Shown here piece by piece: positions 14,197 through 52,659 of a DNA stretch of 64,000 nt. The notes under the pieces were generated by a model, which saw only the letters and a program-made list of their open reading frames with translations, was not told the DNA's origin and did no database searches. The position numbers were made by a program, and so were the translations under genes. The first letter of the stretch is position 1; the number at the start of each line of letters is the position of its first letter. The DNA lies in contig CACOAX010000002.1 in assembly GCA_902625365.1 (NCBI GenBank), forward strand, positions 468 through 64,467, written 5' to 3'. Source of the DNA: an uncultured Alphaproteobacteria bacterium. GTDB taxonomy: Bacteria; Pseudomonadota; Alphaproteobacteria; HIMB59; GCA-002718135.

Positions 14197-15166
14197 GAAA
14201 TATATTCAAAAAAATTATATAAACTTATGTAGTAAGGTTTTAGGTACAAAAATTCATAGTTTTTCTGATCAGTTTTTTGGATCAGCATCCAGATTGCTTA
14301 AAGAGGAACAACCAATTTTTAAAGAAGGAGTATACGATAAAAATGGGAAATGGATGGATGGATGGGAAACAAGAAGAAAAAGAATTGAAGGAAATGATTA
14401 TGTTACTATTAAATTAGGCCTTCCTGGTAAAATTAATTTTGCTGAAATAGACACAAGCTATTTTAATGGCAATCAACCTGAATACGCAAGCATTGATGCT
14501 TGTTATTTTGAAAAAAATAAATTTAATTGGGTAAATATTTTATCAAAAAGGAAACTTAATCCAAATTATCTTCATGGTTTTAAAACTCAACAGAATAATA
14601 AAGTTTTTAACTTCATAAGATTGAACATCTATCCAGATGGAGGAGTAGCAAGATTAAAATTATTAGGAAATTTAGATGTATCAAAATTAAAATTTCCAAA
14701 TAAAAAATTTGATTTACTTAGTATCCTTAACGGTTCAAAAATTGTGGCATGTAGTGATGAACATTTTGGAAGGGCAGAAAATTTATTACTTCCATTTAAA
14801 TCTAAAAATATGGGTAATGGTTGGGAAACTAAAAGAAGAAGAGGATCAGGATATGACTGGGTTATAATTAAACTTGGTAAACCTGGTTTAATTGAAAAGT
14901 TTAATATTGAAACTCATTATTTTAAAGGTAATTATCCTTCTCATTGTTCAGTACAAGCTCTTTATTCAATAAAAAATATAAATATAAACAAATTAATAAA
15001 TGAAAGCAAAAATTGGAAATATTTAATAAAAAATAAAAATCTTAAACCTAATTCATCATTAAAAATTAATTCAAATAAACAAATTAAAAAAATAAATTAT
15101 TTGAAGTTAAATATTTATCCTGACGGTGGTATTTCACGGATCAGGGCAATTGGAAAGTTTTTGTGA
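14189..15166 (+). CDS. alc: Allantoicase
   Basis: 325 aa with two internal repeats, each carrying GWET(R/K)RRR and a D/E-T-x-x-F-x-G-N core (IDTSYFNGN, IETHYFKGN). Confidence 0.9.
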   Translation: MNKKYIQKNYINLCSKVLGTKIHSFSDQFFGSASRLLKEEQPIFKEGVYDKNGKWMDGWETRRKRIEGNDYVTIKLGLPGKINFAEIDTSYFNGNQPEYASIDACYFEKNKFNWVNILSKRKLNPNYLHGFKTQQNNKVFNFIRLNIYPDGGVARLKLLGNLDVSKLKFPNKKFDLLSILNGSKIVACSDEHFGRAENLLLPFKSKNMGNGWETKRRRGSGYDWVIIKLGKPGLIEKFNIETHYFKGNYPSHCSVQALYSIKNININKLINESKNWKYLIKNKNLKPNSSLKINSNKQIKKINYLKLNIYPDGGISRIRAIGKFL

Positions 15167-15657
15167 ACTATAAAATAAAGAATATTAGTAAAGAGAATTT
15201 CAAAAATTATGGTGATTTAATTACAACATTTAATAAAAATTATGAAAGTATTAATAAAAATACAACTGATAGTTTTTTTGATTTAGCAAATATTCAAATA
15301 ATTGGTGATGACAAAAGATCTAGATTAAATATTTTTCAAGCTAAGAAAAGAAACTTTCCATTAAAAATTAACATGTTAGAAAATCACCCCTTTAGCTCTC
15401 AAGTATTTCTTCCATTTAATGCTACAGGGTTTTTAGTTTTAGTTGCTCCAATAGGTAACAAACCTAAAATTGATTTAATTGAAATATTCAAAGTAAGTGG
15501 TGGTGATGGTATAAATTTTAATCCCAAAGTATGGCATTTTCCTCTAATATCTCTTGAGAATGAAAAATATATTACCATTGATAAAAAAGATGCGGATAAT
15601 AATATTGAGATTTATAATTTTGAGCAATCAGAAATATTTGAATTAAATTATGAGTGA
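15163..15657 (+). CDS. allA: Ureidoglycolate lyase (urea-releasing, AllA family)
   Basis: 164 aa with a GTG start overlapping the alc stop (GTGA). Size is cupin-like, a NHPFSSQ.F.P motif is present, and the operon position fits. Confidence 0.8.
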   Translation: MNYKIKNISKENFKNYGDLITTFNKNYESINKNTTDSFFDLANIQIIGDDKRSRLNIFQAKKRNFPLKINMLENHPFSSQVFLPFNATGFLVLVAPIGNKPKIDLIEIFKVSGGDGINFNPKVWHFPLISLENEKYITIDKKDADNNIEIYNFEQSEIFELNYE

Positions 15658-24860: not shown

Positions 24861-26075
24861 ATGGTTGAAATTAAACCTTTTAAAGGTACACGTCCTTACA
24901 ACGAAGATGCAAAAAATTTAATTGCTCCTTCTACTGATCATTTAAGTATTGAAAATATAGAAATATTTAAAAAAAATAATTATTGGAATTATTTAAAAAT
25001 TTTGAATCCTGTTGGACAATTAAAAGAAGCAGATACTCTCTTAGAAGCTAAATCACATTTTAATGAAATGAAAGAAAATGACGTAATTAAAAAAGATAAA
25101 GAATTATGTTATTACATTTATCAAATTGAATTTAAAGGCCATACTCAACTAGGTTTTTTATCTCTTTCTAAAATATCAGATTTCGTAGATGAAAAAATTA
25201 AAGCACACGAAAAAATATACGAGACAAGGATGAGAGAAAGAGCAGAGCAAATGTTAAATATAAAAACACAAATTGGTCCTATTTATGTGGTATATAAAAA
25301 AAATAATAAGATAAAAGATTTATTATCCTCTATAATATCAAATACTCCAGATTATGATTTTGAAAGTTTTGATAAAACTATTCATAAACTCTGGTGTGTC
25401 TCTGATGAATTTTTCATCAAAAAGCTATCTTCTGTTTTTGTAAATGAGGTAGATAATTTTTATATTGCTGATGGACATCATAGAATGGGTGCAATGAAAA
25501 TTATTGGTGAATTAAATTATAATAAAAATATTTTACAGGAAGATTTTATGATAGCTGCATTTCCAAGTGATGAGGCTAAAATATTTGATTATAATAGAGT
25601 TGTTAAAGATTTAAATGGTTTGAGTGAAGAAAATTTTTTAGACATTCTTTCTGAAAACTTCGAAATAAAAAAAGAAAAAAATCCTTTCAAACCTCAATCT
25701 AATAAACAATTTGGAATGTATCACGAAAAAAAGTGGTACTCATTACATTTTAAAACTGAATTAAAAACTGATAATTTTGTTGATACGCTAGATATAAATA
25801 TTTTAAATAATTTTATTTTCAAAAAACATTTAAATATTTCTGATGTTAATAATGATGAAAGAATAAGATTTATTGCTGGATGTCATGGTTTGCAAGCTTT
25901 AGAAAAAAAAGTTGATGAAAATAATGACAGTGTGGCATTTTCTATCTTCCCATCTTCAATAAGTGATGTTATTACAGTCGCGAATAAAAATTTGACTATG
26001 CCTCCTAAATCAACATGGTTTGATCCAAAACCTTTAGATGGCTTAGTAGTTTATGAGTTTGAAAAAATTATATGA
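24861..26075 (+). CDS. DUF1015-family protein
   Basis: 404 aa. The motif IADGHHR and the overall size match DUF1015 as I recall it. Confidence 0.75.
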   Translation: MVEIKPFKGTRPYNEDAKNLIAPSTDHLSIENIEIFKKNNYWNYLKILNPVGQLKEADTLLEAKSHFNEMKENDVIKKDKELCYYIYQIEFKGHTQLGFLSLSKISDFVDEKIKAHEKIYETRMRERAEQMLNIKTQIGPIYVVYKKNNKIKDLLSSIISNTPDYDFESFDKTIHKLWCVSDEFFIKKLSSVFVNEVDNFYIADGHHRMGAMKIIGELNYNKNILQEDFMIAAFPSDEAKIFDYNRVVKDLNGLSEENFLDILSENFEIKKEKNPFKPQSNKQFGMYHEKKWYSLHFKTELKTDNFVDTLDINILNNFIFKKHLNISDVNNDERIRFIAGCHGLQALEKKVDENNDSVAFSIFPSSISDVITVANKNLTMPPKSTWFDPKPLDGLVVYEFEKII

Positions 26076-27235
26076 ATAAACCTAATAAAAAACCTAACAA
26101 TCCAAACTTTTCAAGTGGACCAACTTCAAAAAGACCAGGCTGGGACATATCAGTGTTGAGTAATGCTTTAACTGGTAGATCTCACAGATCTGTTGAATGT
26201 AAAGCAAGATTAAAAGAAGCAATAGATAAATCTAAAGATATTCTTAAATTACCTGATGATTATTTATTGGGTATCATGCCTGGATCAAATACTGGCGCTT
26301 TAGAAGCGGCTATGTGGTGCCTACTAGGTAAAACGGGAGTCGATATTCTTGCATGGGAAAATTTTGGTAAAGATTGGGTAATCGATGCAATTAGCGAACT
26401 AAAATTAGATAATTTAAATATTCATGAAGAAGATTATGGTAAACTACCTGACCTTAGCAAAGTCAATTTTGATAATGATGTTATTTTTACTTGGAATGGA
26501 ACAACATCTGGTGTCAAAGTTCCTAATGGAGATTGGATACCTGATGATAGAAAAGGCCTAACCATTTGTGATGCTACTTCGGCAATCTTTGGTATGCCTA
26601 TAGATTATAATAAATGTGATGTTATAACTTGGTCTTGGCAAAAAATACTTGGAGGAGAGGCTGCTCATGGAATGATAGCAATTTCTCCACGCGTTGTTGA
26701 AAGATTAGAAAGTTTTACACCTAGTTGGCCAGTGCCAAAATTATTTAGATTAGCTGAAAACCAAAAATTGATAAAAGGTATTTTTGAAGGAAACACAATT
26801 AATACACCTTCAATGATATGTGTTGAAGATATAATTGATTCATTAAATTGGGTTTCTTCTCAAGGAGGATTAAATTCATTAATTTCTAAATCTCAGAATT
26901 CTTTACAAAAAATTAGAGAATGGATTAATAAGAGAGATTGGGTCACCTTTTTATCTGAAATTGAAGATGATAATTATATCTCAAATACTGGAATAACTTT
27001 TAAAATTATTGAAGATTGGTTTACTAATAAAGATGAAAGCAGTCAAAGAGCTGTAATGGTTGATATATGTAAATTACTTTCTGAAAATAATGTTGGATTT
27101 GATTGCAATGGATATCCCAAAGCACCACCTTCTTTTAGAATATGGGCTGGAGGAACTGTTCAAACTTCAGATGTAGAATTAGTTTTACCTTGGATTGATT
27201 GGGCCTATTCAGAGATTAAATCAAAACATGCCTAA
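26072..27235 (+). CDS. serC: Phosphoserine aminotransferase (alphaproteobacterial/methanogen-type SerC)
   Basis: 387 aa with NFSSGP near the N-terminus and SWQKILGGE (PLP lysine region). ATGA overlap with the preceding gene. Confidence 0.85.
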   Translation: MNKPNKKPNNPNFSSGPTSKRPGWDISVLSNALTGRSHRSVECKARLKEAIDKSKDILKLPDDYLLGIMPGSNTGALEAAMWCLLGKTGVDILAWENFGKDWVIDAISELKLDNLNIHEEDYGKLPDLSKVNFDNDVIFTWNGTTSGVKVPNGDWIPDDRKGLTICDATSAIFGMPIDYNKCDVITWSWQKILGGEAAHGMIAISPRVVERLESFTPSWPVPKLFRLAENQKLIKGIFEGNTINTPSMICVEDIIDSLNWVSSQGGLNSLISKSQNSLQKIREWINKRDWVTFLSEIEDDNYISNTGITFKIIEDWFTNKDESSQRAVMVDICKLLSENNVGFDCNGYPKAPPSFRIWAGGTVQTSDVELVLPWIDWAYSEIKSKHA

Positions 27236-28166
27236 AGTACTAATATCAGATTCACTAGATAATATTGCATCTCAAATTTTAATAAAAAATAACATTTCAG
27301 TTGATACAAAAACAAACTTATCTCCTGAAGAATTAAAAAAAATAATTGATAACTATGATGGTTTAATCATTCGTTCTGCAACTAAGGTGCGAAAAGATTT
27401 AATTGACTCTCTTTCAAATTTAAAAATTATAGGTAGGGCAGGAGCAGGAGTAGATAATGTTGATGTGGAAGCTGCTAAAAATAAAAATATTATCGTAATG
27501 AATACCCCAGGAGGAAATACAAATGCTACAGCAGAACACACAATTGGTTTAATTTTTGCATTACAAAGAAAAATTACTGTTGCCAATGAGGCAACTCATA
27601 AGGGTCTTTGGGAAAAAAAGAAATTAAAAGGAAATGAAATTAAAGGCAAGAAAATTGGTATCATAGGTTTTGGCAATGTAGGCAAAAGAGTTGCAGAAAT
27701 ATCTGATGTATTGGGAATGCAGGTTTCAATATTTTCTTCATACTTTGAAACAATTAAGGATAACTTTCCTGAATATAATTCTTGTTCTATCGATGAGATT
27801 ATTAAAGATTCAGATATAATTTCTTTTCACTGTAAACCGAATAAAGATGGTAACCCCATTATGAATAAAAATCATTTATCATTGATGAAAAAAAATTGCA
27901 TAATTATTAATACTGCTAGAGGTAACTTAGTTGATGAAGATGATCTTAAAAATGCTCTAGAAAAAAAAGAAATTAAAGGCGCTGCATTAGATGTTTTTAA
28001 AAATGAGCCTTTAGAAGAAAGTGGGTTTTATAATTTAGATAATATAATTTTAACTCCACATATTGCTGCTTCTACTGATGAAGCACAAATAGTAGTAGCA
28101 GAAATGGTTGCTAATCAGTTTGTTGAATTTTTTAATAATAATAAAATTATAAATTCAGTTACTTAA
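27228..28166 (+). CDS. serA: D-3-phosphoglycerate dehydrogenase, short form without an ACT domain
   Basis: I trimmed to the ATG at 27228 (MPKVLISD). The NAD motif is GIIGFGNVGKRVA and the catalytic region is NTARG...PHIAAST. It has about 312 codons, so there is no regulatory domain. Confidence 0.88.
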   Translation: MPKVLISDSLDNIASQILIKNNISVDTKTNLSPEELKKIIDNYDGLIIRSATKVRKDLIDSLSNLKIIGRAGAGVDNVDVEAAKNKNIIVMNTPGGNTNATAEHTIGLIFALQRKITVANEATHKGLWEKKKLKGNEIKGKKIGIIGFGNVGKRVAEISDVLGMQVSIFSSYFETIKDNFPEYNSCSIDEIIKDSDIISFHCKPNKDGNPIMNKNHLSLMKKNCIIINTARGNLVDEDDLKNALEKKEIKGAALDVFKNEPLEESGFYNLDNIILTPHIAASTDEAQIVVAEMVANQFVEFFNNNKIINSVT

Positions 28167-37545: not shown

Positions 37546-37546
37546 T

Positions 37547-40500
37547 ATGAATTATACACCTTTTATGTCAGTTTTTGATGTTGATCCACCTATTATTGAT
37601 AATAAACATTTAATTAAATGGTTAAAGATTAATTTTTCTTTCTTAAGAAATAAATTACTCAAAATTAAACAACTTGATAGTGAAAGGGATATAAATTTTA
37701 TTATATTCATAAATAACAAAAAAAAATATGTATTGAAAATTTCAAACCCATCAGAAAAAATAAATATATTAAAATACCAAGATAGATTAATTAATTATTT
37801 ACGAAGTGATCTTAGTCTTAAATCTTTTATACCAAAAATACACCATACAAAGATTGTAAAATATTTAGATAAAAAAAATAGAGAATGCTTTGTTAGGATC
37901 TTGTCTTATATTGAAGGGCAAATGTACGGAGCTATAAAAAATACCGATAAGATTGAAAATTCTTTAGGTAAGTTACTTGGAAAAGTATCAAATAAGTTAC
38001 AAGCATTTAATGATATAGATGCTCATAGAAATTTTATTTGGGATCCATCAAATATAAAATGGATTAAAAAAGATATTAATATTTTTACTGGCTCAAAAAA
38101 ATCAATTTTATTAAAATGTTTTTCAGAATATCAAAAATTTGTAAAAAATAATTTAAATAAATTAAGATATTCAATAACTCATTCAGATCCAAATAATTAT
38201 AATATCGTTATTAAGGAAAACAATGTTTGTGGTTTACTAGATTATGGAGACTCTATTTATTCTCCAACAATAAATGATTTAGCTATATGTCTTTCATACG
38301 CATTAATGAATAATGACAACATTTATCTTACACTTAAAAATATAATAACAGAGTACAATAAACAGTTTTCTATTAATGAGGATGAAATTAATTCATTAAT
38401 ATCGCTATGTAAGTCAAGACTTATGATTACTGTTGTAATGGCAAAAAAACAAAGAATTAAATATCCATCAAATCAATATTTAAGTATTAGTGAGAAAGAT
38501 GCATGGTCTTTATTAGAAAAATTAGACAAAATTCCTATCAATTTTTTAATATATATTGTTCGTGAAATATGTGGCTTTGATATTATTCAGCATCATAATG
38601 AAATTATAAATTATATAAATAAATTCAACTTTGGTAATATTTTTAAATTTAATTTACTTGATAAAAATAAATCTATCTTGAAATTAAGTTCTGATTCACC
38701 TTTATTAAAAGGTAATCCAGATAATAGTTTGCTTAAAAAAAGAGTTAATAAAATATTTAAAGAAGATAATTCTCGTATAGGAATAGGTTTATACAATGAA
38801 AAAAGAAAAGTTTATAAGGGTCCTAACTTCATTTCTGAATTAAATACGAATGAAAGACGTAATATTCATTTAGGCGTAGATATCTTTATTGATCAGGGAA
38901 CAGATTTATTTGCACCAATAGAAGGTAAAATTTTAATTTTAAAAAATAATAATTTTAAATATGACTATGGTCCCACTCTAGTTTTAGAACATAGTTTTAA
39001 AAAATATAAATTTTATACTCTTTACGGTCATTTATCCAAAATAATGTTTCAAAAACTAAAAACTGGAAAAAAAATTAAGAAAGGTGACTGGATTGGTAAA
39101 ATTGGTAACTCTAATGAAAATGGAAAATGGTTACCACATTTACATTTTCAAATTATTTTAGATTTATTAGGACATGATAAGAATTTTCCAGGAGTAGGTG
39201 AAGAATTTTTATTCAATATTTGGAATAAAATTTCACCTGATCCAAATTTAATTCTACGAATTCCAAAATCGTTTTATTCTAATAATAATAATTTTAGAGA
39301 TACTTTAAAAAAAAGAAGAAAAAATATTTCAGATAATTTTTCAATTTCTTACAAGAACCCCCTTCATATGCTTGAAGCTAAAGATCAGTATTTTTTTGAT
39401 AGATATGGAAGAAGATACTTAGATTGTGTAAATAATATTTCCCATGTTGGGCATTCAAATTCTTATGTCCATGAAGCAATGACTCAACAAAATTTAAAAC
39501 TTAATACTAATACAAGATATCTTTACAATACAATTAATGATTATAGTGAATTACTTTTAAGTAAGTTTCCAAAGAAATTAAATAAGATATTTTTTGTATG
39601 CACAGGATCTGAAGCTAATGATTTAGCGTATAGAATAGCTCAAACTTATACTAATGCAAAAGATGTCTTTGTTATAGATAATGCTTATCATGGGCATACC
39701 AATGCTTTAATTGATCTGAGTCCTTATAAATTTAATAGTAAGGGTGGTTTAGGTAAAAAAGATTATGTTCACGTATTAGATATGCCTGATCCCTTAAGAG
39801 GTAAGTGGAAATATCAAAATTCAAATTGGATTAAAAAATATATAACTGAAGCTAAAACAGTAATTAGAAATAAAATTAAAGAAACCAAAATTGCATGTTT
39901 TTTTGCTGAAAGTATACTTGGTTGCGGTGGTCAAGTAATTCTTCCAAAAAATTATTTAAAAGAAATATTTTCAGAAATTAGAAGAAACAATGCTTTATGT
40001 ATCGTTGATGAGATACAAACTGGTTTCGGACGTGTTGGAAGAAATTTTTGGTCATTTGAAGAGCATGATGTCGTTCCTGATATAGTAACCTTAGGAAAAC
40101 CTATGGGTAATGGTCACCCTATAGCTGCTGTTATAACTACCGAAAAAATTGCTTCAACTTTTAATAACGGGATGGAATATTTTAATTCATTCGGTGGCAA
40201 TCCTGTTTCCTGCGCTATTGGTAAAGCAGTATTAGAGACTATTGATAATAATAAATTACAAAAAAATGCTTTGTTAGTTGGTAATTATTTTTTAAAAGAA
40301 TTAAAAAAAATTCAACTAAAATATAAAAAATATATTAGTGAAGTTAGAGGTAGAGGGCTTTTTTTAGGAATGGATATTATTCAAAATAGTAATATCTCTA
40401 AACCAAATAAAAAATTAGCTAAACTGCTTATTAATTATATGAGAAATCAAGGTATTTTATTGAGCACTGATGGCCCTTATGACAATGTTATTAAAATAAA

Positions 40501-40576
40501 ACCACCTCTTGTATTTACAAAATTAAATGTTGATCAGGTATGTAAAAATTTAGAAACTTTCTTTAAAAAATTATAA
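37547..40576 (+). CDS. Tri-domain fusion: APH/hydroxylysine-kinase-like phosphotransferase, M23 peptidase-like domain, and class-III aminotransferase-fold (AGXT2L/phospho-lyase-like) domain
   Basis: The kinase loop is HSDPNNYN plus LLDYGDS. The M23 motifs are HLGVD and PHLHFQ. The PLP domain has DEIQTGFGRVGRNFWSFEEH and DIVTLGKPMGNGHP. I prefer the ATG at 37547 because 37526 would overlap the divergent psuK start. Confidence 0.85.
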   Translation: MNYTPFMSVFDVDPPIIDNKHLIKWLKINFSFLRNKLLKIKQLDSERDINFIIFINNKKKYVLKISNPSEKINILKYQDRLINYLRSDLSLKSFIPKIHHTKIVKYLDKKNRECFVRILSYIEGQMYGAIKNTDKIENSLGKLLGKVSNKLQAFNDIDAHRNFIWDPSNIKWIKKDINIFTGSKKSILLKCFSEYQKFVKNNLNKLRYSITHSDPNNYNIVIKENNVCGLLDYGDSIYSPTINDLAICLSYALMNNDNIYLTLKNIITEYNKQFSINEDEINSLISLCKSRLMITVVMAKKQRIKYPSNQYLSISEKDAWSLLEKLDKIPINFLIYIVREICGFDIIQHHNEIINYINKFNFGNIFKFNLLDKNKSILKLSSDSPLLKGNPDNSLLKKRVNKIFKEDNSRIGIGLYNEKRKVYKGPNFISELNTNERRNIHLGVDIFIDQGTDLFAPIEGKILILKNNNFKYDYGPTLVLEHSFKKYKFYTLYGHLSKIMFQKLKTGKKIKKGDWIGKIGNSNENGKWLPHLHFQIILDLLGHDKNFPGVGEEFLFNIWNKISPDPNLILRIPKSFYSNNNNFRDTLKKRRKNISDNFSISYKNPLHMLEAKDQYFFDRYGRRYLDCVNNISHVGHSNSYVHEAMTQQNLKLNTNTRYLYNTINDYSELLLSKFPKKLNKIFFVCTGSEANDLAYRIAQTYTNAKDVFVIDNAYHGHTNALIDLSPYKFNSKGGLGKKDYVHVLDMPDPLRGKWKYQNSNWIKKYITEAKTVIRNKIKETKIACFFAESILGCGGQVILPKNYLKEIFSEIRRNNALCIVDEIQTGFGRVGRNFWSFEEHDVVPDIVTLGKPMGNGHPIAAVITTEKIASTFNNGMEYFNSFGGNPVSCAIGKAVLETIDNNKLQKNALLVGNYFLKELKKIQLKYKKYISEVRGRGLFLGMDIIQNSNISKPNKKLAKLLINYMRNQGILLSTDGPYDNVIKIKPPLVFTKLNVDQVCKNLETFFKKL

Positions 40577-42312: not shown

Positions 42313-42369
42313 TATTTAAATTTTTTTATCGCTTTTATAATATTAATCAAATATATAATTTTTTTTTAA

Positions 42370-43308
42370 ATGAGCCATTTATTTTATAAACCTGCTAAAT
42401 CTAGATTACACAGAAGTGAATTGGCAGTTCCTGGGTCTAATCCAAAGATGTTTGAAAAAGCATTAAAATCAAATGCCGATTATATTTTTCTCGATTTAGA
42501 AGATGCAGTATCTCCAAATGATAAAATTGATGCAAGAAAAAATGTTATTAACGCAATAAAAGAATATAATTGGCGAGAAGAAGGTAAAACAATTTCTATA
42601 AGAATTAACGGCTTGGATACACACTATATGTATCGTGATGTGATCGAAATTATAGAAGAGGTCGGTGATATGGTTGATACATTATTAATTCCAAAAGTAG
42701 GCTCATCATCTGACGTATATATGGTTGACTGTATGCTTAATCAAATTGAACAAAATAAAAAATTTGAAAATCGAATAGGTTTAGAATGTTTAATTGAAAC
42801 AGCATTAGGAATGTCTAATATCCAATCAATAGCAACATCAAGTTCGAGACTAGAAGCATTACACTTTGGAGTTGCAGATTATGCAGCAAGTATGCGAGCA
42901 AGAACTGTTGTCATAGGAGGTTTAAATCCCGATTACCCTGGTGATCAATGGCACCATGGCTTATCAACTTTAGTAATGACCTGTAGATCATATGGGTTAA
43001 GAGCAATAGATGGTCCTTTTGGTGATTTTAATGACAAGGAAGGGTATCTTGATGCAGCAAAAAGAGCCGCAGCAATTGGTTTTGAAGGTAAATGGGCAAT
43101 ACATCCATCGCAAATAGATCTAGCTAATGAAGTTTTTTCTCCACCCAAAGAAGAAATAGATAAAGCAAAAAGAATATTATTAGAATTAGAAAAAGCAGCT
43201 GCTGAAGGAAAGGGCGCTGCTCAGCTTGATGGCAGAATGATCGATGCTGCATCCGCAAGAATGGCTGAAAATATTGTAAATATTAATAAATTAATTGAGA
43301 GCAAGTAA
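42370..43308 (+). CDS. mcl: L-malyl-CoA/beta-methylmalyl-CoA lyase (HpcH/CitE family)
   Basis: 312 aa. RLHRSELAVPGSNP, IRINGLDTHYMYRDV, FGVADYAAS and GFEGKWAIHPSQIDLANEVF are near-identical to my recollection of methylotroph MclA. Confidence 0.88.
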   Translation: MSHLFYKPAKSRLHRSELAVPGSNPKMFEKALKSNADYIFLDLEDAVSPNDKIDARKNVINAIKEYNWREEGKTISIRINGLDTHYMYRDVIEIIEEVGDMVDTLLIPKVGSSSDVYMVDCMLNQIEQNKKFENRIGLECLIETALGMSNIQSIATSSSRLEALHFGVADYAASMRARTVVIGGLNPDYPGDQWHHGLSTLVMTCRSYGLRAIDGPFGDFNDKEGYLDAAKRAAAIGFEGKWAIHPSQIDLANEVFSPPKEEIDKAKRILLELEKAAAEGKGAAQLDGRMIDAASARMAENIVNINKLIESK

Positions 43309-44471
43309 TGGACATACACGAATATCAAGCAAAAAAAATATTGTCTGATTTTGGTGTTAAAATTCCAACTGGTGGTATTGTTTATAGTCCAGAAAATGCA
43401 GAAAATAAAGCGAGAGAAATTGGTGGTTCTAAATGGGTTGTAAAAGCGCAAGTTCACTCTGGTGCTAGAGGTAAAGCGGGAGGAATTATATTATGTAATT
43501 CTCCATTAGAAGTTGCTGATGCAACTGATAAATTATTAGGTAAAAAATTAATTACAAACCAAACTGGTCCAGAAGGTAAAATAATAAATAGAATTTATAT
43601 TGAAGAAGCAACTGATATCAAACATGAATTATATTTAGGTTTAGTGTTTGATAGATCTTCAGAAAGTATAATGGTTGTAGCTTCAACAGAAGGTGGAATG
43701 AGTGTCGAAGAAATTTCAAAAGAAAAACCTGAAACAATTATACGATCTAAAATAGAAGTAGCAGTTGGCATTCAGCAATTTCAAGCAAGAGAAATAGCTT
43801 TTGGTTTGGGAATTGAATCCAAATTGATCTCAAGAGCTGCAAATACTATTATTGGTTGTTATAAAGCATTTAGTGAGCTTGATGCAACAATGGTTGAAGT
43901 TAACCCATTAGTTGTATCAAACCAAGATGAAATATTAGCATTAGATTGTAAAATGAGTTTTGATAATAATGCAATGTTTAGAAGAGATGAAATTGCAGAA
44001 CTTAGAGATAAAACACAGGAAAATTCTAACGAAGTTTATGCTTCTGACAGAGGAATGAATTATGTAAGCCTAGACGGGAATATTGGTAATATTATTAATG
44101 GTGCAGGTTTAGCAATGGCTTCAATGGACATGATAAAACTTGCCGGCGGTGAACCTGCAAATTTTCTAGATGTTGGTGGAGGGGCCACTCCTGAGAAAAT
44201 AGTTAAAGCTTTTAAGTTAATCTCTATGGACACAAAAGTTAAGGTAATTTTAGTTAATATTTTTGCAGGTATTAACAGATGTGATTGGGTTGCGGAAGGA
44301 ATCGTTCAAGCTTTATCAAAAATTGAAATTAAACATCCTTTAGTTATACGTTTAGCTGGAACGAACGTTGAAAAAGGAAATGAAATACTAAAAAAAAGCA
44401 ATATTAATTACATTGAAGCATCAACTTTGGAAGATGCAGCAAATAAAGCAGTAAAGGCTCTTGCACAATAA
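43308..44471 (+). CDS. mtkA: Malate--CoA ligase beta subunit (SucC homologue, MtkA-like)
   Basis: 387 aa with an ATP-grasp N-terminus MDIHEYQAK. QQFQAREIAF and NIFAGINRCDWVAEG match MtkA rather than the SucC wording as I recall it. It is coupled to mcl (TAATG). Confidence 0.8.
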   Translation: MDIHEYQAKKILSDFGVKIPTGGIVYSPENAENKAREIGGSKWVVKAQVHSGARGKAGGIILCNSPLEVADATDKLLGKKLITNQTGPEGKIINRIYIEEATDIKHELYLGLVFDRSSESIMVVASTEGGMSVEEISKEKPETIIRSKIEVAVGIQQFQAREIAFGLGIESKLISRAANTIIGCYKAFSELDATMVEVNPLVVSNQDEILALDCKMSFDNNAMFRRDEIAELRDKTQENSNEVYASDRGMNYVSLDGNIGNIINGAGLAMASMDMIKLAGGEPANFLDVGGGATPEKIVKAFKLISMDTKVKVILVNIFAGINRCDWVAEGIVQALSKIEIKHPLVIRLAGTNVEKGNEILKKSNINYIEASTLEDAANKAVKALAQ

Positions 44472-45367
44472 TGTCTATAATCATTCACAAAAATACAAAG
44501 ATTTTAGTCCAAGGTTTTACTGGAAAAATTGGAAGCTTTCATGCTGAAGAAATGATTAAGTATGGTTCAAACGTTGTTGGTGGAGTAACACCTGGAAAGG
44601 GAGGTATGACTCATTTGAATCTTCCTGTTTTTAATACTGTTAAAGAAGCTGTAGATCAAACGGGTGCATCAACGTCAATTTTATTTGTACCACCATCCTT
44701 TGCAGCAGACTCAGCAATGGAAGCTGCTGATGCAGGTATTAAAACTTGTGTGGCTATTACTGATGGTATACCTTCTCATGATATGGTTAAAATAAAAAGA
44801 TATATGAAAAGATACCCAAAAGATAAAAAAATGGGATTAGTAGGTCCGAATTGTGCAGGAATAATTAGCCCTGGTAAATCCATGTTAGGTATTATGCCAG
44901 GTCATATTTACAAAGAAGGTAAAATAGGAATAGTTAGTAGATCTGGTACTTTGGGATATGAAGCTGCACAACAACTTAAAGATTTAGAAATAGGTGTTTC
45001 AACAAGTGTTGGTATTGGAGGTGATCCAATAAATGGCAGTTCTTTTAGAGATATAATTGAAAAGTTCGAGAATGATGATGAAACAATTGCAGTTTTAATG
45101 ATAGGTGAAATAGGTGGTCCGCAAGAAGTAGAGGCTGGTAAATTTGCTAAAGAAAATATGAGTAAACCTGTAATTGCTTATATTGCAGGGTTAACTGCTC
45201 CTAAAGGTCGTGTTATGGGTCATGCTGGAGCTATAGTCTCTGCATATGGTGAAAGTGCGATTGAAAAAGTAGAACTTCTTAAAGAGTGTGGAGTTACGAT
45301 TTCCAAAAACCCTTCTGTAATGGGAGAGACCGTAAAAAAAGTATTGGTAGAAAATAAATTGAATTAA
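44471..45367 (+). CDS. mtkB: Malate--CoA ligase alpha subunit (SucD homologue, MtkB-like)
   Basis: 298 aa with CoA-binding VQGFTGKIGSFH and the phosphohistidine loop GHAGAIVS. Confidence 0.8.
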   Translation: MSIIIHKNTKILVQGFTGKIGSFHAEEMIKYGSNVVGGVTPGKGGMTHLNLPVFNTVKEAVDQTGASTSILFVPPSFAADSAMEAADAGIKTCVAITDGIPSHDMVKIKRYMKRYPKDKKMGLVGPNCAGIISPGKSMLGIMPGHIYKEGKIGIVSRSGTLGYEAAQQLKDLEIGVSTSVGIGGDPINGSSFRDIIEKFENDDETIAVLMIGEIGGPQEVEAGKFAKENMSKPVIAYIAGLTAPKGRVMGHAGAIVSAYGESAIEKVELLKECGVTISKNPSVMGETVKKVLVENKLN

Positions 45368-45382
45368 TATAATAAAATTAAA

Positions 45383-45520
45383 ATGAAATTTTTATATAAA
45401 AATGAATTTTGGATGCTTATATTTTCATTAGGTGTTCTTTACTGGCTATTTAATCCATCAGTTTTAATGACTTTGATTATGATAATACCTTTATTGTTAG
45501 CAGTTTCATCTAGAAAATAA
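45383..45520 (+). CDS. Possible 45-aa membrane peptide
   Basis: Not in the ORF track. Manual translation gives MKFLYKNEFWMLIFSLGVLYWLFNPSVLMTLIMIIPLLLAVSSRK. It occupies most of a 177-bp gap. Confidence 0.25.
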   Translation: MKFLYKNEFWMLIFSLGVLYWLFNPSVLMTLIMIIPLLLAVSSRK

Positions 45521-45544
45521 TTATTTTATATCTAATTAATATTT

Positions 45545-46132
45545 GTGAAAATTAATTATTATTTACTATATTTTATTGTTTTATTGTATTCACCATTTTC
45601 CTTATCAAATGAACATATTGAGTACGATGATTGGATTAAAAATGAAATTTTCTCAAAAAATTTAATAAAAAAAATTGATAATTTAATTAATTTAAAAGTT
45701 AATTCTAAAACTCAAAGTGAAAACCAAGCAAAAAAAATAAAAAAAATAATTATTTCAAATTTAAACTTTATTGCTAATTATCAAAATCAATATAAAAATT
45801 TAAGATCATTTTGTAGTAATCAAATTGGTGAAATAAATTTTGAATATTTTTTACTTGTTGAGAATTGTATCGAAAATAAAGATAAAAAATTAATGAATGA
45901 ATATTCATTATCTGAATTTGAATTTAATAATACCAAAAGTTTATTATTTGATAATGCAGAAAAATTTAAAATCAAATTTATTAGTTTGCATTCGCACGAA
46001 GTTAAAAAAGAAAACTATGATATAATAATGAAAAATTATAAAAATAATATTGAAGAAATAAACTATAAAATATTTGAAGATCAATTTAATATTTTATTAA
46101 TATATTTAGAAAATAAATATAAATTAAATTAA
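45545..46132 (+). CDS. Hypothetical exported protein (N/K-rich)
   Basis: 195 aa with a GTG start and a signal-like N-terminus. No motif recognised. Confidence 0.5.
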   Translation: MKINYYLLYFIVLLYSPFSLSNEHIEYDDWIKNEIFSKNLIKKIDNLINLKVNSKTQSENQAKKIKKIIISNLNFIANYQNQYKNLRSFCSNQIGEINFEYFLLVENCIENKDKKLMNEYSLSEFEFNNTKSLLFDNAEKFKIKFISLHSHEVKKENYDIIMKNYKNNIEEINYKIFEDQFNILLIYLENKYKLN

Positions 46133-46137
46133 TATTT

Positions 46138-46701
46138 ATGAAATTATATTTAATTAGACACGCTGAGTCTGAAGCTAACGCAGCATCAGATTTAGATAAT
46201 CCAACTTATTATTATGATGCAAGAATTACTCAAAGAGGAGTTGTGCAAGCAAAAAAATTAAATAATAGAATTAAAAATCTCAAATTTGATAATTATTTTT
46301 GTTCCCCCTTAACAAGAACATTGGAAACATTCTCTATTGTTTTTCCATCTAATAAACCTGTAATTGAACCTTTAATAAGAGAGCATTTGTACCACTCATG
46401 TGATGTAGGAAGACAACCAAAAAAATTAAAAAAAGAATTTAATAATTTTGATTTTAATAATTTAAATAATTTTTGGTGGAATAATAACAAACCTATTAAT
46501 GAAAAAAAAATTATACAAGAGTCTCACAATGATATTAAAATGAGATTAAGGTCTTTTCTGCTAACTATCAAAAACCTTAATTTACAAAAAATTGTATTAG
46601 TCAGTCATGGTACATTCTTAAGTCAAATAACTGAATATATGCTGGATAACTGTGAGGTATATGATTGTGAGTACAATGAGGTATACGAAAAATTCTTTTA
46701 A
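46138..46701 (+). CDS. Histidine phosphatase superfamily protein (phosphoglycerate mutase-like)
   Basis: 187 aa with the N-terminal LIRHAESEAN (RHG motif) and a distal SHG. Confidence 0.8.
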   Translation: MKLYLIRHAESEANAASDLDNPTYYYDARITQRGVVQAKKLNNRIKNLKFDNYFCSPLTRTLETFSIVFPSNKPVIEPLIREHLYHSCDVGRQPKKLKKEFNNFDFNNLNNFWWNNNKPINEKKIIQESHNDIKMRLRSFLLTIKNLNLQKIVLVSHGTFLSQITEYMLDNCEVYDCEYNEVYEKFF

Positions 46702-46724
46702 TTTAATTCTTAATAAATAATAAA

Positions 46725-47492
46725 CTAAAACATCTCATTTATTATTTTATTTAATTTTTGTGTTACTCTATCAATTATTTTTTTTCCTATCAGAGTATTG
46801 GACTTTGTAGGGTCTCCAATAATTCCACTTTTACTTAATTCTTTAGTTACCCAAGTTTTCTTAATATTTTTCTCATAAGAAATGGTTTTAGATGATAAAT
46901 AATCGGGAGATAATGTATGTTTAGAAATTTTAGATTGCCTAACTAGGTTTGGAAATAAATATAACATAATAGATGTTTCAAATTCTCCACCGTGATAACC
47001 AAAGTCTTTTTCTTTACTTGATATAATTCCTTTAAATTGATCAAATAAAAAATATGTGCCTTTTACTATGTTTATCTTAAATTCTGATTTCAATTCTTTA
47101 GCAATAATATCTATATGGCTAATTTGTCCACCATGACTATTTAAAAGTAATATATTTTTAAATTTCAATTTACATACATTTTCTAAAATTGATAAAGAGT
47201 GCGATATAAATTCCAATGAATCAATACTTATTGTTCCATCAAAATCCGCATGTTCAGCAGCTGAACCAAAATATATTTCAGGCATAATTAAATATTTATT
47301 TGAATTATATTTTTTATTGAATTCTAATAATATTCCTTCAAGAATTTTTTTATCAGTATTTAAAGGAAGATGCGGACCGTGCTGTTCTATTGATGAAAAT
47401 GGGAAAATTAAAACTGTTTTTCTATTTATTTTTTTAATTTCATTTGTTGTTAATTCTTCCCAAAAGTTTGTTAGCATTTTTTTATTATACAT
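46725..47492 (-). CDS. Creatininase-fold amidohydrolase
   Basis: 255 aa with SIEQHGPHLPLNTD, NSHGGQ and HGGEFETS metal-site motifs of the creatininase family. That family also contains the archaeal formamide hydrolase ArfB. Confidence 0.85.
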   Translation of the reverse strand: MYNKKMLTNFWEELTTNEIKKINRKTVLIFPFSSIEQHGPHLPLNTDKKILEGILLEFNKKYNSNKYLIMPEIYFGSAAEHADFDGTISIDSLEFISHSLSILENVCKLKFKNILLLNSHGGQISHIDIIAKELKSEFKINIVKGTYFLFDQFKGIISSKEKDFGYHGGEFETSIMLYLFPNLVRQSKISKHTLSPDYLSSKTISYEKNIKKTWVTKELSKSGIIGDPTKSNTLIGKKIIDRVTQKLNKIINEMF

Positions 47493-47505
47493 TTATAAGT
47501 AAATT

Positions 47506-48465
47506 ATGAAATCTTATTCTTTATGGATTGATAAAAAAAAACAAGCTAAAATTTATCAAAAAAAACTTATTTACAATAAAAATAACAAAACAGTTTTAGT
47601 TAAAACTATTTACTCAGGTATTAGCAAGGGAACTGAAAAATTAGTTTCATCTAAAAGCATAAGTAAGGATCAATTTGAATTAATGAAAGCCCCTTTTCAA
47701 GAGGGTTCTTTTAATTTACCTATAAAATACGGTTATATAAATGTTGGGAATATTATTGATGGTCCAAGGAAATATATAAATAAAAAAATATTTAGTCTTT
47801 ATCCTCATCAAGATTTATATGAAATTTCTATTCACAATTTAATTTTTCTACCAAAAGGAAATTTGAGAAAATATATTCTAACTGCAAATATGGAAACAGC
47901 AATTAATATCTTTTGGGACGCTCAATCTAAAAGTAATAACAAAATTCTAATTGTAGGGCTTGGCTCTGTAGGAATATTAACTGCATTTTTTTTTAAAATT
48001 AATGGATATAAAAATGTTTATGTTTTTGATAATAATAAAAATAAAAGAAAAATTGCCAATTATTTAGGATTCAATTTTATTGATATAAGAAAGATTGAGA
48101 AAATAGATGTAGCAATAAACACTACAGCTAATTATAAAGTTTTAAATTCTTTAATGGAAAAATTATCTATCGAAGGAAAAATAGTAGAAGCTAGTTGGTA
48201 TGGTAAAAATAAAGGAGAAGTTGCCTTGGGCGGGTATTTTCATTCTAAAAGATTAAAAATTATTAGCTCACAGGTATCTAAAATACCAAAATACATGAAA
48301 AATAAATATGATTTTGAGGGGAGATTAAAATTAGCAATTAAATCTTTAAAAAATTCAAAATTAGAAAAATTAATTACTAGTGAAAGTAATTTTTTTGATT
48401 TAGAAAAAGATTACTATAAAATCCTTCAAAATAAGGACACAATAATGCATCTAGTTAAATATTAA
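47506..48465 (+). CDS. Medium-chain dehydrogenase/reductase-like oxidoreductase lacking the usual zinc cysteines
   Basis: 319 aa with a GroES-like N-terminus and a Rossmann motif VGLGSVG. SGISKGTE replaces the canonical GxCGSD zinc site. Confidence 0.7.
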   Translation: MKSYSLWIDKKKQAKIYQKKLIYNKNNKTVLVKTIYSGISKGTEKLVSSKSISKDQFELMKAPFQEGSFNLPIKYGYINVGNIIDGPRKYINKKIFSLYPHQDLYEISIHNLIFLPKGNLRKYILTANMETAINIFWDAQSKSNNKILIVGLGSVGILTAFFFKINGYKNVYVFDNNKNKRKIANYLGFNFIDIRKIEKIDVAINTTANYKVLNSLMEKLSIEGKIVEASWYGKNKGEVALGGYFHSKRLKIISSQVSKIPKYMKNKYDFEGRLKLAIKSLKNSKLEKLITSESNFFDLEKDYYKILQNKDTIMHLVKY

Positions 48466-48467
48466 TT

Positions 48468-48866
48468 ATGTATTCGATAAAAGTAAGAGAAAATATTCTA
48501 ATAGCTCATTCTTTACCTGGAGAAGTATTTGGACCAGCTCAAAATATGCATGGAGCTACATATTTAGTAGATGCAGAATTTTTCACTGATAAAATTAATA
48601 AATACAATATAATTATGGATTTAGGAATAGTGTCCACAACTTTAAAAGATGTTCTTAAAATATATAATTATCAAAATTTAGATGAAATTGATGAATTTAA
48701 GGGAAAAATTACCTCAACAGAGTTTCTAGCAGAGGATATTTGCAATAAGATCTTGAATAGACTAAGAAATGAATTCTCTGAAGATTACAAATCTTTAAAA
48801 AAAATTAAAATAACCTTGCAAGAATCAAATGTTGCATGGGCATCATATGAAAAAGAGGTTATCTAA
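48468..48866 (+). CDS. 6-pyruvoyl-tetrahydropterin synthase/QueD-fold protein with a degenerate active site
   Basis: 132 aa. IAHSLPG......NMHGATY parallels the PTPS AAH....C..LHGH.Y wording, but the Cys and the last His are missing. Confidence 0.7.
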   Translation: MYSIKVRENILIAHSLPGEVFGPAQNMHGATYLVDAEFFTDKINKYNIIMDLGIVSTTLKDVLKIYNYQNLDEIDEFKGKITSTEFLAEDICNKILNRLRNEFSEDYKSLKKIKITLQESNVAWASYEKEVI

Positions 48867-49893
48867 AAATAAATCTGATATTTATTTTGTCTATCCAGGA
48901 AATATTAATGCAAAAACTGGAGGATATATTTATGAAAAAAATATCCTAGAATATGCAAAGATAAGAGATATAAATATTAGATCAATTGCTCTAAGTGAAA
49001 ATTATCCTTTTCCTACAAATAACGATATAAAATATTTTCTTAAAATTTTAGATAAAATTGATCCTCACTCTAAAATTATTATAGATGGATTAGCTTTAGA
49101 AGGAATGTATTCAATTTTTAAAAAAATACTTACTTATAATGTTATCGCGCTAATACATCATCCATTATATCTTGAATTTAAAGGTCAAAGGTCAAAAAAA
49201 TTCTTACGATTAGAAAAAGAAAATTTCAAAAAAATAAATAAATTTATTGTGACTTCTAAAAATACAAAAAATTTATTAATAAATGAATTTAAGGTACTAA
49301 ATAATAAAATTTATGTAGTTGAACCTGGTATAGAAAGACTTGCAAAATATAATTTTAAAAATAATAGGAAAATTCATTTTTTAACATGTGGAAGTATAAT
49401 AAATAGAAAAAATTATCTTTTTTTATTAAAAGTTCTAAAGCCTTTAGATAATTTTATTTTAGAAATTATTGGTGATACTACAAGAGATATAAGTTATTAC
49501 AAAAAACTCAAAAAATTTATTTCTAAAAATTCAATGAACAGAAAAATAATATTCCATGGCACTATTTCAGATACAAAATTAGCTAAATTATATTCTAAAA
49601 CAGATTGTTACATTTCGGTAAGTAAATATGAAGGTTTTGGTATGTCTTTAGCAAATGCATTAATAATTAAAAAGCCAATTATAACCTATTTTACTAATAC
49701 TATCTTAAATACACTAGGAAAAAAAGGTGTTATTTATTTCAAAAAATTTGAAGTAAATGATCTTAGGAAAATAATTATTAAAAATATATTAAATAAAAAA
49801 AATTTTAAAAAACTAAATATTGATATTCATAAAAATAAAAGATATCTTCTTACTCCTCTAGAGTCTGCTAAGAAATTTGTTAAATTAATTTAA
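48847..49893 (+). CDS. Group-1 (GT4-like) glycosyltransferase
   Basis: I trimmed to the ATG at 48847. The C-terminal half has SKYEGFGMSLANALIIKKPII, a GT1 E-x7-E-like region. Confidence 0.75.
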   Translation: MKKRLSKNKSDIYFVYPGNINAKTGGYIYEKNILEYAKIRDINIRSIALSENYPFPTNNDIKYFLKILDKIDPHSKIIIDGLALEGMYSIFKKILTYNVIALIHHPLYLEFKGQRSKKFLRLEKENFKKINKFIVTSKNTKNLLINEFKVLNNKIYVVEPGIERLAKYNFKNNRKIHFLTCGSIINRKNYLFLLKVLKPLDNFILEIIGDTTRDISYYKKLKKFISKNSMNRKIIFHGTISDTKLAKLYSKTDCYISVSKYEGFGMSLANALIIKKPIITYFTNTILNTLGKKGVIYFKKFEVNDLRKIIIKNILNKKNFKKLNIDIHKNKRYLLTPLESAKKFVKLI

Positions 49894-49894
49894 T

Positions 49895-50707
49895 ATGCAT
49901 GAATTTCAAAATAAATGGTTAAATCTTAGAGAAACTGTCGATAGAAATTCAAGAAACAAAAGAATACTATATTTAATTAATAAATTTTTTAAAAATAAAA
50001 AAAATATTAGAATAGTTGACTTAGGTTCTGGTGCTGGATCTAATTATAGATTTCTTAAGTCACGATTATTAAATAATCAATATTGGTCTTTTGTAGATAT
50101 ATCACATAAATCAACAAATTATTTTAAAAAAAATATAAAATTATCATCTAAAATAAAAAAAAATAATTTTAAAATTGTTGATGTAATTAATAATCTAGAA
50201 AAAATAAATTTTAATGATTATAATTTAGTTACAGGATCTGCTTTTTTAGATATTCTTCCAAAAACATGGTTTAAAAATTTTTATAAATTTAATGTTGATA
50301 CAGAAATTGTCTACTTTGCCTTAAATTATAACGGTAATTTTAAATTTTTTCCAAAACACAAGGATGATAAAAAAATTCTTAATATTTTTAATAAAGATCA
50401 AAAATCTGACAAAGGAATAGGGGAATTGGCCGTTGGACCAGATTGCACTAAATTAATAAATAAAGTATTTAAAAGGACTCACAAAACATATGTTTTAGAC
50501 TCTACATGGGATGTTAGTAAAAATTATGAATTTCAAATTTATTTCTTAAATTTTTGTAGAGAAATTATTCAAAAAAATAAACTTAACTTTGATGATTGGT
50601 TAAAATTTCGTTTAAAAAATATTAAAGAAAAAAATTCTAGATTTATTTTAAATAATAAAGATTTTTTAGCTATTAAGAAAAAAATTAACAATAAATTCAT
50701 TTTCTAA
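49895..50707 (+). CDS. Class I SAM-dependent methyltransferase
   Basis: 270 aa with motif I IVDLGSGAGSN and motif post-I FVDIS. Confidence 0.7.
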   Translation: MHEFQNKWLNLRETVDRNSRNKRILYLINKFFKNKKNIRIVDLGSGAGSNYRFLKSRLLNNQYWSFVDISHKSTNYFKKNIKLSSKIKKNNFKIVDVINNLEKINFNDYNLVTGSAFLDILPKTWFKNFYKFNVDTEIVYFALNYNGNFKFFPKHKDDKKILNIFNKDQKSDKGIGELAVGPDCTKLINKVFKRTHKTYVLDSTWDVSKNYEFQIYFLNFCREIIQKNKLNFDDWLKFRLKNIKEKNSRFILNNKDFLAIKKKINNKFIF

Positions 50708-51499
50708 TTCATTAAAATTATATTTTGGTCTGATAGCTTTATTGAGATTTGAAATTTCTTTTAAATTCAATGAATTAATTCCAGAACCTATTAATATTGG
50801 GGCAATCATTAATTGAAGAATATCAATATATTTATTATTTATTAATTCTGAAATAGTTTTTGATCCTCCCTCTACTAAAATATTTTTATATTTAAGTTTT
50901 TTAATTTGTGTAATTAAGTTTTTAGTAAAATTTTTTTCTTTTAATTTAATTATCGTTGAATTATTCAATTTAATATTTTTATTACTTTTTGTAAAAATTA
51001 TATTTTCATTACCGTCATTAAAAATTTTATATTTGTTATTTAGCGAAAGACTGCCATCAATAATAATTCTTTTTGGATTTGTGCCCTTTATTCTTCTTGT
51101 TGTTAATAGTGGATCGTCTTTTTTAATAGTATTTGAGCCCACAATAATCGCATCACTGATACTTCGTAAACAATGAAGATAAATAATACTCTTGGGATTA
51201 TTTATATAATGTGAATTACCATTATTTAACGCAATTCTACCATCAATACTTTGTCCTATCTGAGCTATAACTAATTTTTTGTTTTTTCTTAGAATCGGGA
51301 CAAGGATATTTAAGATTGATTGATAAAATTTACTTATATTAATTTTGGATTCCAGATTATTATTTTTTATGTAAAAGTTACTTTTTCTTTTTGATGATAA
51401 AGAAATACTATTTTTTTTAACCAATAAATATAAATCACTATTCTTTTTAGAATTTTTTATAAAATCTAGTAAAATTCCTATATTTTTTGATGTAATCAT
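50666..51499 (-). CDS. RibD C-terminal-domain reductase (no deaminase domain)
   Basis: 277 aa with AQIGQSIDGRIA, DAIIVGSNTIKKDDPLLT and VEGGSKT typical of RibD_C/DHFR-like reductases. About 70 extra residues sit at the N-terminus. Confidence 0.8.
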   Translation of the reverse strand: MITSKNIGILLDFIKNSKKNSDLYLLVKKNSISLSSKRKSNFYIKNNNLESKINISKFYQSILNILVPILRKNKKLVIAQIGQSIDGRIALNNGNSHYINNPKSIIYLHCLRSISDAIIVGSNTIKKDDPLLTTRRIKGTNPKRIIIDGSLSLNNKYKIFNDGNENIIFTKSNKNIKLNNSTIIKLKEKNFTKNLITQIKKLKYKNILVEGGSKTISELINNKYIDILQLMIAPILIGSGINSLNLKEISNLNKAIRPKYNFNELENEFIVNFFLNS

Positions 51500-51535
51500 T
51501 TGTTTTTATTGCAATTATATCTATATAAAGTTTTC

Positions 51536-52657
51536 ATGAGTTTCAAATCTAATACAGGAACTATAATAGATAGGGCAATTAATGAACTCAGGACCGGAAG
51601 ACCCTTAATAATTCAGAATAACAAGGAATATTGGATGTTCTTTAATATAGAGCATTCCCAAAGTAAAATTTTTAATCAATTCAATAAGCACTTAATTGAT
51701 GAAAAATACCTTCTTATCACTAAACAAAAAGCTCAATCAATTTTTAATAAGAATGTTAAAAGTAATACTTATTTTGAGATACATCCCAAAACAGATGTAA
51801 ATCAAATAATAAATTTATTTGTCAATCCTCTTAGCAATAATAAAGTAATTAAATTTACCAATATTAAAAAATTCAAAGCTAAAAATTTTCATAATGTTTG
51901 TATTGATCTTTCCAAAAATGCTAAAATGATACCATCGCTAGTTTTTAAAAAAATTAATAAAAAACATTACAAAAATATAAATGAATTTGGATTTAAAAAT
52001 GGAATTTTAATATTCGATTACAAAGATTTATTGAAGCAAAATGAATTAATTTGTGAAAGTATCAAATTAGTTTCCAGTGCAAAAGTTCCACTACCAAAAA
52101 ATGAAAATTCTAATTTTAAAATATTTAAATCATATATTGGATCTGATAAACATGTAGCGATAATTGTAAATCCAAAAAAAATAAATAAAAAATCTGTTAA
52201 TTTAAGAATACATTCAGCTTGTTTTACAGGTGATATTTTTCACTCTTTAAAATGTGATTGCGGTGAACAGTTAAATCAATCAATCAATTACATGGTTAGA
52301 AATAATGGTGGAATTATATTATATTTAGAACAAGAAGGTAGAGGAATAGGATTAGCTAACAAAATGAGAGCCTATTCTCTTCAAGCAAGAGGTATGGATA
52401 CAATAGACGCCGATCATAATATTGGTTTTTTAGATGATGAAAGAGATTTTAATATTGCAGCTAGAATACTTAAATTATTAAAAATAAATAAAGTTAATCT
52501 TATTACAAATAATAAAAGTAAAATAAATTCTATTAAGAAAGCTGGAATTAAAGTCGAAAATCAAATTAATACAAAGCCAACCTTGAATAAATTTAATAAA
52601 AATTATTTTAAAACAAGAGTTAAAAAAGCCGGATATGGTCTTAAACTAGTAGTATAA
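51536..52657 (+). CDS. GTP cyclohydrolase II with an additional N-terminal (degenerate RibB-like) domain
   Basis: The C-terminal half has IHSACFTGD, LKCDCG (zinc Cys triad), EGRGIGLANKMRAYSLQ and DERDF. I prefer the ATG at 51536 to the TTG at 51500. Confidence 0.88.
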   Translation: MSFKSNTGTIIDRAINELRTGRPLIIQNNKEYWMFFNIEHSQSKIFNQFNKHLIDEKYLLITKQKAQSIFNKNVKSNTYFEIHPKTDVNQIINLFVNPLSNNKVIKFTNIKKFKAKNFHNVCIDLSKNAKMIPSLVFKKINKKHYKNINEFGFKNGILIFDYKDLLKQNELICESIKLVSSAKVPLPKNENSNFKIFKSYIGSDKHVAIIVNPKKINKKSVNLRIHSACFTGDIFHSLKCDCGEQLNQSINYMVRNNGGIILYLEQEGRGIGLANKMRAYSLQARGMDTIDADHNIGFLDDERDFNIAARILKLLKINKVNLITNNKSKINSIKKAGIKVENQINTKPTLNKFNKNYFKTRVKKAGYGLKLVV

Positions 52658-52659
52658 TT

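Follow-up and report, generated by a model that had tools for sequence, protein, structure and literature searches.

A predicted malyl-CoA lyase and malate thiokinase operon as a candidate malate synthase substitute in AEGEAN-169 marine bacteria

Malate thiokinase (MtkAB; EC 6.2.1.9) and malyl-CoA lyase (Mcl; EC 4.1.3.24) act in the serine cycle of Methylobacterium/Methylorubrum extorquens and Aminobacter aminovorans. Acting in two reversible steps, the pair converts malate, CoA, and ATP to acetyl-CoA, glyoxylate, ADP, and phosphate or back (PMC11533326, PMC3832036). In Rhodobacter sphaeroides, the apparent malate synthase consists of the lyase Mcl1 and the malyl-CoA thioesterase Mcl2 (PMC2948502, PMC3832036). 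An engineered reverse glyoxylate shunt combines Methylococcus SucCD-2 with Mcl in E. coli (reviewed in PMC6966089), and in evolved Methylomonas sp. DH-1, mcl and mtkAB were duplicated after breakage of malate synthase, leading to the proposal that Mcl and Mtk complement the defect (PMC11533326). For the marine AEGEAN-169 group, Getz et al. found malate synthase in only some subclade II genomes and tied glycolate use to those (PMC10308909). The AEGEAN-169 genome literature that we examined, including that study, makes no mention of malyl-CoA enzymes. Our limited search found no publication in which malate thiokinase is shown to run physiologically against the serine-cycle direction, and none naming malate-CoA ligase together with Pelagibacter. 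The enzymes themselves are well known; what is new here is their genomic context, with interest in direction and energetics.

We analyzed a window of 64,000 nucleotides from an uncultured alphaproteobacterium (contig CACOAX010000002.1), which contains an intact, stop/start-coupled mcl-mtkA-mtkB operon (Table 1). The host matches AG-337-I02, a genus of the order HIMB59 in the AEGEAN-169 group (PMC8692485): homologues at the 99% level include AG-337-I02, and a pyruvate carboxylase, a sarcosine oxidase, and a PhnW-like gene fit the published AEGEAN-169 description (PMC11366302). Because this assembly (G000) is only 55% complete, absences were tested in relatives. The trio resembles the serine-cycle enzymes in protein family, active-site residues, and the motifs of Aminobacter, but forms a stand-alone three-gene operon in a streamlined heterotroph whose near-complete relatives lack Sga, Ppc, and glyoxylate regeneration through Icl/Ccr.

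Table 1. Features of the window discussed in the text
Feature	Position	Strand	Remarks
mcl	42370..43308	+	malyl-CoA lyase (predicted), 312 aa, intact ORF
mtkA	43308..44471	+	malate--CoA ligase (malate thiokinase) beta subunit (predicted), 387 aa, intact ORF
mtkB	44471..45367	+	malate thiokinase alpha subunit (predicted), 298 aa, intact ORF
TAATG stop/start overlap mcl/mtkA	43306..43310	+	one-base overlap
TAATG stop/start overlap mtkA/mtkB	44469..44473	+	one-base overlap
~10-kb block between SRAP gene and bcp, headed by mcl-mtkAB	42313..52659		synteny vs G061, G063, G068, G112
allA-like ureidoglycolate lyase gene, after allantoicase	15163..15657	+	PF04115 match, below NCBIfam cutoffs
serC and short serA-like gene	26072..28166	+	partial serine biosynthesis

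An earlier note on this DNA, made from the sequence alone, had described the three genes as coupled by overlapping stops and starts and as visibly less AT-rich than their neighbors. Both observations held: two overlaps join the genes, and their GC content is 0.33-0.35 against 0.16-0.26 in neighboring genes. The third-position GC of the trio (0.15-0.19) is ordinary relative to the genome mean of 0.164 +/- 0.028, and sdhA and sucD of the same genome are equally GC-rich, indicating that the excess reflects amino acid composition; higher GC was accordingly rejected as a mark of foreign DNA. A promoter and terminator scan gave a result at chance level, and no riboswitch was found close to the trio, either in the window or in SAR11 loci. 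RNA-library contigs from four studies match all three genes at at least 90% identity, and one reaches from mtkA into mtkB. These contigs are compatible with expression of the trio; they neither rank expression nor prove transcription.

The first gene had been proposed to encode a malyl-CoA lyase. Its best solved relatives are indeed malyl-CoA lyases (5ugr, E 6e-115; 4l9y, 2e-83), whereas CitE proteins match it at only about 1e-21. The protein retains D42, E44, D45, R78, E143, D170, and the lid aspartate D292, so that the catalytic Arg, the Mg-binding Glu/Asp, and the lid Asp described for malyl-CoA lyase (PMC3832036) are all present. In the Mcl2 malyl-CoA thioesterase cluster a glutamate replaces the lid aspartate (PMC3832036); D292 excludes this assignment, and no Mcl2-like paralogue was seen. 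The citrate lyase beta subunit was rejected as well (175 bits on the CitE model TIGR01588, cutoff 443), placing the protein among Mcl-type enzymes rather than among citrate or citramalyl-CoA lyase subunits.

The earlier note had regarded the two following SucC/SucD homologues as Mtk-type, and the data for the beta subunit agree. MtkA passes the malate--CoA ligase beta model NF010647 with 624.8 bits (cutoff 604), the genome's own SucC stays below that cutoff with 409.9 bits, and the two proteins share 38% identity. In a tree that left out the M. extorquens protein itself, MtkA falls into a 73-row Mtk-type clade (support 100/99) that excludes every SucC, and its clade-mates are methylotroph-type homologues, including those of Aminobacter, Hyphomicrobium, and Ruegeria. 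Both motifs quoted in the note, including QQFQAREIAF, are present and occur in the Aminobacter homologue too, whereas three SucC proteins read NIFGGI..CD, and among the few sequences compared the motifs tell the Mtk clade from SucC. MtkB shares about 54% identity with the SucD of the same genome and matched no MtkB-specific profile model; it is assigned on the basis of its coupling to mtkA and of its co-occurrence with mtkA in nearly all homologous loci. The ligase genes are linked to a malyl-CoA lyase gene, and many Mtk-clade homologues adjoin sga, hpr, or ppc.

Both ligase subunits also exceed the broad SucC/SucD cutoffs, as a second succinyl-CoA synthetase beside a CitE-like protein would. 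We consider this reading very improbable. A separate sucCD pair lies on contig C1 of the same genome within a full TCA-cycle cluster, sdhCDAB-mdh-sucCD-sucAB-lpd, so these are not its only sucCD-like genes, and SucC and MtkA are set apart by score, identity, and clade. The operon therefore very probably encodes a malyl-CoA lyase and a malate thiokinase distinct from the TCA-cycle SucCD, with malate as the predicted substrate of MtkAB.

The distribution of the module was compared with that of malate synthase. Among 105 genomes of AG-337-I02, mcl is present in 70, malate synthase G in 19, and both in a single genome (G015). Malate synthase A was not found in the 67 genus genomes searched; four other genera in the family do carry it. 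Taking SucC identity to G000 as the yardstick of host relatedness, 52 of the 58 genomes at or above 87% carry mcl and two carry glcB; at 63-75% identity (20 genomes), mcl is found in none and glcB in 14. The host tree places G033, which has glcB only, and G015 at the boundary. In G000, glcB is missing beside galE-galT-sufE, the site that it occupies in more distant relatives, and an unrelated 387-aa gene stands at the glcB site of G033, G031, and G015 on continuous contigs. At the module site, four glcB relatives (G061, G063, G068, and G112) have the SRAP gene and bcp within ~0.8 kb, without the whole 10-kb block. Synteny thus shows that the genes are genuinely absent from these sites.

The simplest history is one gain of the module followed by loss of glcB. 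The mutual exclusivity of mcl and glcB is then essentially one clade-level event, which is suggestive and no statistical proof; a hypergeometric P of 9e-10 is invalid as evidence because the carriers are close kin. G001 was considered as a second independent replacement and ruled out, as it has malate synthase A; like G015, it retains both systems. The earlier note had named malate synthase among the genes to look for, and its general absence from carriers in the genus favors a replacement, with G015 as a counterexample. Isocitrate lyase was found in 0 of 41 genomes; even so, other lineages of the family retain malate synthase G or A, at several distinct loci, which suggests standing selection for a glyoxylate sink.

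This pattern also bears on the substrate. Mcl enzymes take several CoA thioesters (PMC3832036), and through such promiscuity the main substrate of the trio might be a hydroxy acid other than malate, such as citramalate or beta-methylmalate. That is improbable: crotonyl-CoA carboxylase/reductase was over cutoff in 0 of 5 genomes, pointing to the lack of an ethylmalonyl-CoA pathway, the beta subunit passes a malate-specific model, and the loss of glcB would be left unexplained.

The module extends beyond the genus: mcl occurs in 71 of 116 genomes of the family and, within the SAR11 family, in 23 of 251 (~9%, the search center counted in). Identity to three SAR11 genomes is 80-88% for the module, against 47-49% for SucC, 58-59% for Mdh, and 68-69% for SucD. 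The far greater closeness of the module indicates lateral exchange among streamlined marine bacteria, and these sequence comparisons support lateral entry of the operon into one AEGEAN-169 subclade, the one lacking malate synthase. SAR11 was not retained as the donor: a tree of MtkA alone nests the window clade within SAR11, and the three-gene tree makes the two sisters. Monophyly of the family's module copies was not rejected (p-AU 0.118). The SAR11 carriers kept malate synthase in 27 of 29 genomes and isocitrate lyase in 25 of 29.

The SAR11 loci differ in their surroundings. In some of them (L046:1-11514 of G139, L025, and L035), mcl-mtkAB and ppc lie inside an N-methylglutamate methylamine cluster; G139 also has an sga-like gene, found in few module carriers, and isocitrate lyase, and could encode a partial isocitrate-lyase-type serine cycle. 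Published work describes SAR11 as a group that does not assimilate C1 (PMC3160333). Most of the other SAR11 carriers, including L028, L030, and L033, have the module between his genes and a HIT gene, away from any C1 genes. Besides these SAR11 loci, G001 (L100:2472-9447) also has the module in the vicinity of methylamine genes; there a serC-like gene comes after mcl-mtkAB, and then a ppc in convergent orientation.

The description of the trio as serine-cycle-type applies to the ancestry of the enzymes and not to the pathway encoded here. A serine-glyoxylate aminotransferase (Sga)-like protein, which the earlier note had suggested looking for, was found in 0 of 38 family genomes; for Sga/Agt/BhcA-like aminotransferases as a whole, the best match in these genomes was the PhnW-like protein at ~25%. 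PEP carboxylase was absent from G000 and from five genus genomes that are 90-96% complete. The hydroxypyruvate reductase search returned GhrA-like proteins with scores below cutoff, and glycerate kinase was not found in G000, the sole genome searched for it, which is 55% complete. A working serine cycle for one-carbon assimilation would fit the nearest non-streamlined homologues, which lie in sga/hpr/ppc clusters, and the presence of a Formate-THF ligase. With Sga, Ppc, Icl, and Ccr all missing from relatives that are 90-96% complete, we regard it as the least credible of the readings considered. C4 compounds and glycine can be supplied by other routes, through pyruvate carboxylase and sarcosine oxidase, respectively (the latter, PMC11366302).

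A likely source of glyoxylate, judged from its sequence, is the allA-like gene in the purine cluster (Table 1), behind an allantoicase gene that passes its own NCBIfam cutoff. The note's distance of 22 kb to the purine pathway is borne out, as the cluster ends ~21.5 kb upstream of the operon (the glyoxylate-releasing gene is 26.7 kb away), but this nearness carries no weight, because module-free relatives share the cluster as part of their syntenic core. AllA is widespread both in module carriers and in malate-synthase relatives. A GlcD-like gene is present, for which no glcE/glcF partner was found. As to glyoxylate sinks, the carriers have neither an Sga/BhcA-like aminotransferase nor a Gcl over cutoff, and no other was found.

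We propose, at about even odds, that the trio stands in for malate synthase and removes glyoxylate by a reversible, ATP-coupled route. Glyoxylate would arise mainly from purine breakdown through AllA, and perhaps from glycolate via a GhrA-like enzyme; Mcl and Mtk would connect glyoxylate to the TCA cycle in place of malate synthase, and the ADP-forming ligase step would retain the thioester energy as ATP. The trio probably took over the job of malate synthase, possibly saving one ATP per turn. The broader proposition, that an abundant, natural ocean lineage exchanged the irreversible malate synthase for a malyl-CoA route conserving one ATP per glyoxylate, we put forward as tentative, with somewhat less confidence.

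ATP synthesis costs about +30 kJ/mol. The malate synthase reaction is reported at -44 kJ/mol (PMC6966089), and from these two values the net Mcl plus Mtk condensation comes to about -14 kJ/mol. Under assumed concentrations, glyoxylate would reach equilibrium at about 1-160 uM under starvation and at 0.7-100 mM when the cell is energized. These figures make the sink weak. Being near equilibrium, the route could act as a sink at high glyoxylate or low energy charge and run in reverse at other times.

Operation in the serine-cycle direction is accordingly the main alternative, which we consider possible but less likely. Here ATP would drive the cleavage of malate to acetyl-CoA and glyoxylate, either for glycine synthesis without isocitrate lyase or for conversion of C4 acids to acetyl-CoA, and malate synthase would have been lost because it closes a futile cycle. 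The exclusivity of mcl and glcB could also have arisen because a cycle between malate synthase and Mtk/Mcl wastes ATP and was selected against. Cleavage is thermodynamically favored at high energy charge, a GhrA-like reductase could absorb glyoxylate overflow, and SAR11 and G001 modules sometimes adjoin ppc, sga, or a serC-like gene. No carrier searched has a canonical serB (found in 1 of 45 genomes overall and 1 of 38 family genomes), and neither isocitrate lyase nor malic enzyme nor PEP carboxykinase was found. However, serB, isocitrate lyase, malic enzyme, and PEP carboxykinase are also missing from module-free relatives, so the gaps do not require the module. In G000 itself, glyA, gcvP, and serB were not found, which is weak evidence at 55% completeness; the downstream histidine phosphatase was rejected as a SerB substitute, since it matched phosphoserine phosphatase 1 only marginally (E 0.001). 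Cleavage would also leave purine-derived glyoxylate without a known exit, and in the 38 family genomes no aminotransferase that would turn glyoxylate into glycine is evident. Of the two directions offered in the earlier note, glyoxylate assimilation is thus backed by the loss of malate synthase in carriers, whereas glycine formation meets the lack of a recognizable aminotransferase.

The substitution for malate synthase proposed here resembles the Rhodobacter sphaeroides system in that a malyl-CoA lyase replaces malate synthase and malyl-CoA is a free intermediate. It differs in that an ADP-forming ligase would take the place of the thioesterase, conserving the thioester energy, and in that there is neither an ethylmalonyl-CoA pathway nor an Mcl2-like protein. 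The engineered reverse glyoxylate shunt uses the same two activities outside the serine cycle, but is synthetic and run toward cleavage, whereas the trio described here is natural. In Methylomonas sp. DH-1, complementation is a suggestion for a laboratory strain; here a natural lineage combines gain of the module with loss of glcB. If Mcl and MtkAB do substitute, the largest species cluster of the genus can also channel glyoxylate to the TCA cycle, a route missed by metabolic models that score only aceB/glcB. If the ATP-conserving reading is true, malate thiokinase would here work physiologically in reverse of the serine cycle. For marine metagenomes, mcl and mtkAB are no markers of methylotrophy.

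Further loci showed other arrangements. A gammaproteobacterial MAG (G148; L055, L154) has isocitrate lyase and mcl-mtkAB, with malate synthase G/A not found, and may close a glyoxylate shunt with Mcl and Mtk. At three loci (L049, L051, and L053), which have a different neighborhood, no mcl adjoins mtkAB, and malate synthase was not found in the genomes concerned. In a Dokdonia MAG record (L037), SAR11-like mtkAB (88% identical) is joined to unrelated genes, probably on a chimeric or misbinned contig. The MtkA of G080 (L106:9281-10441) has 37 substitutions within residues 49-256 and is otherwise nearly identical to the window copy; the divergent segment is at most 83% like any homologue compared and looks like recombination with an unsampled allele.

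Within the window, the rest of the inserted block (45545-52657) encodes the histidine phosphatase, then a creatininase-like amidase, a zinc dehydrogenase, and a 6-pyruvoyl-tetrahydropterin synthase-like protein, besides glycosyltransferase, methyltransferase, RibD-like, and RibA-like proteins, as judged from sequence. These genes share their site of gain with mcl-mtkAB, and a functional link to the trio is not evident. Upstream of the operon, positions 37526-40576 encode a 1016-aa protein with a PRK06148 match just below cutoff and a C-terminal class III aminotransferase part; it is core in relatives both with and without the module.
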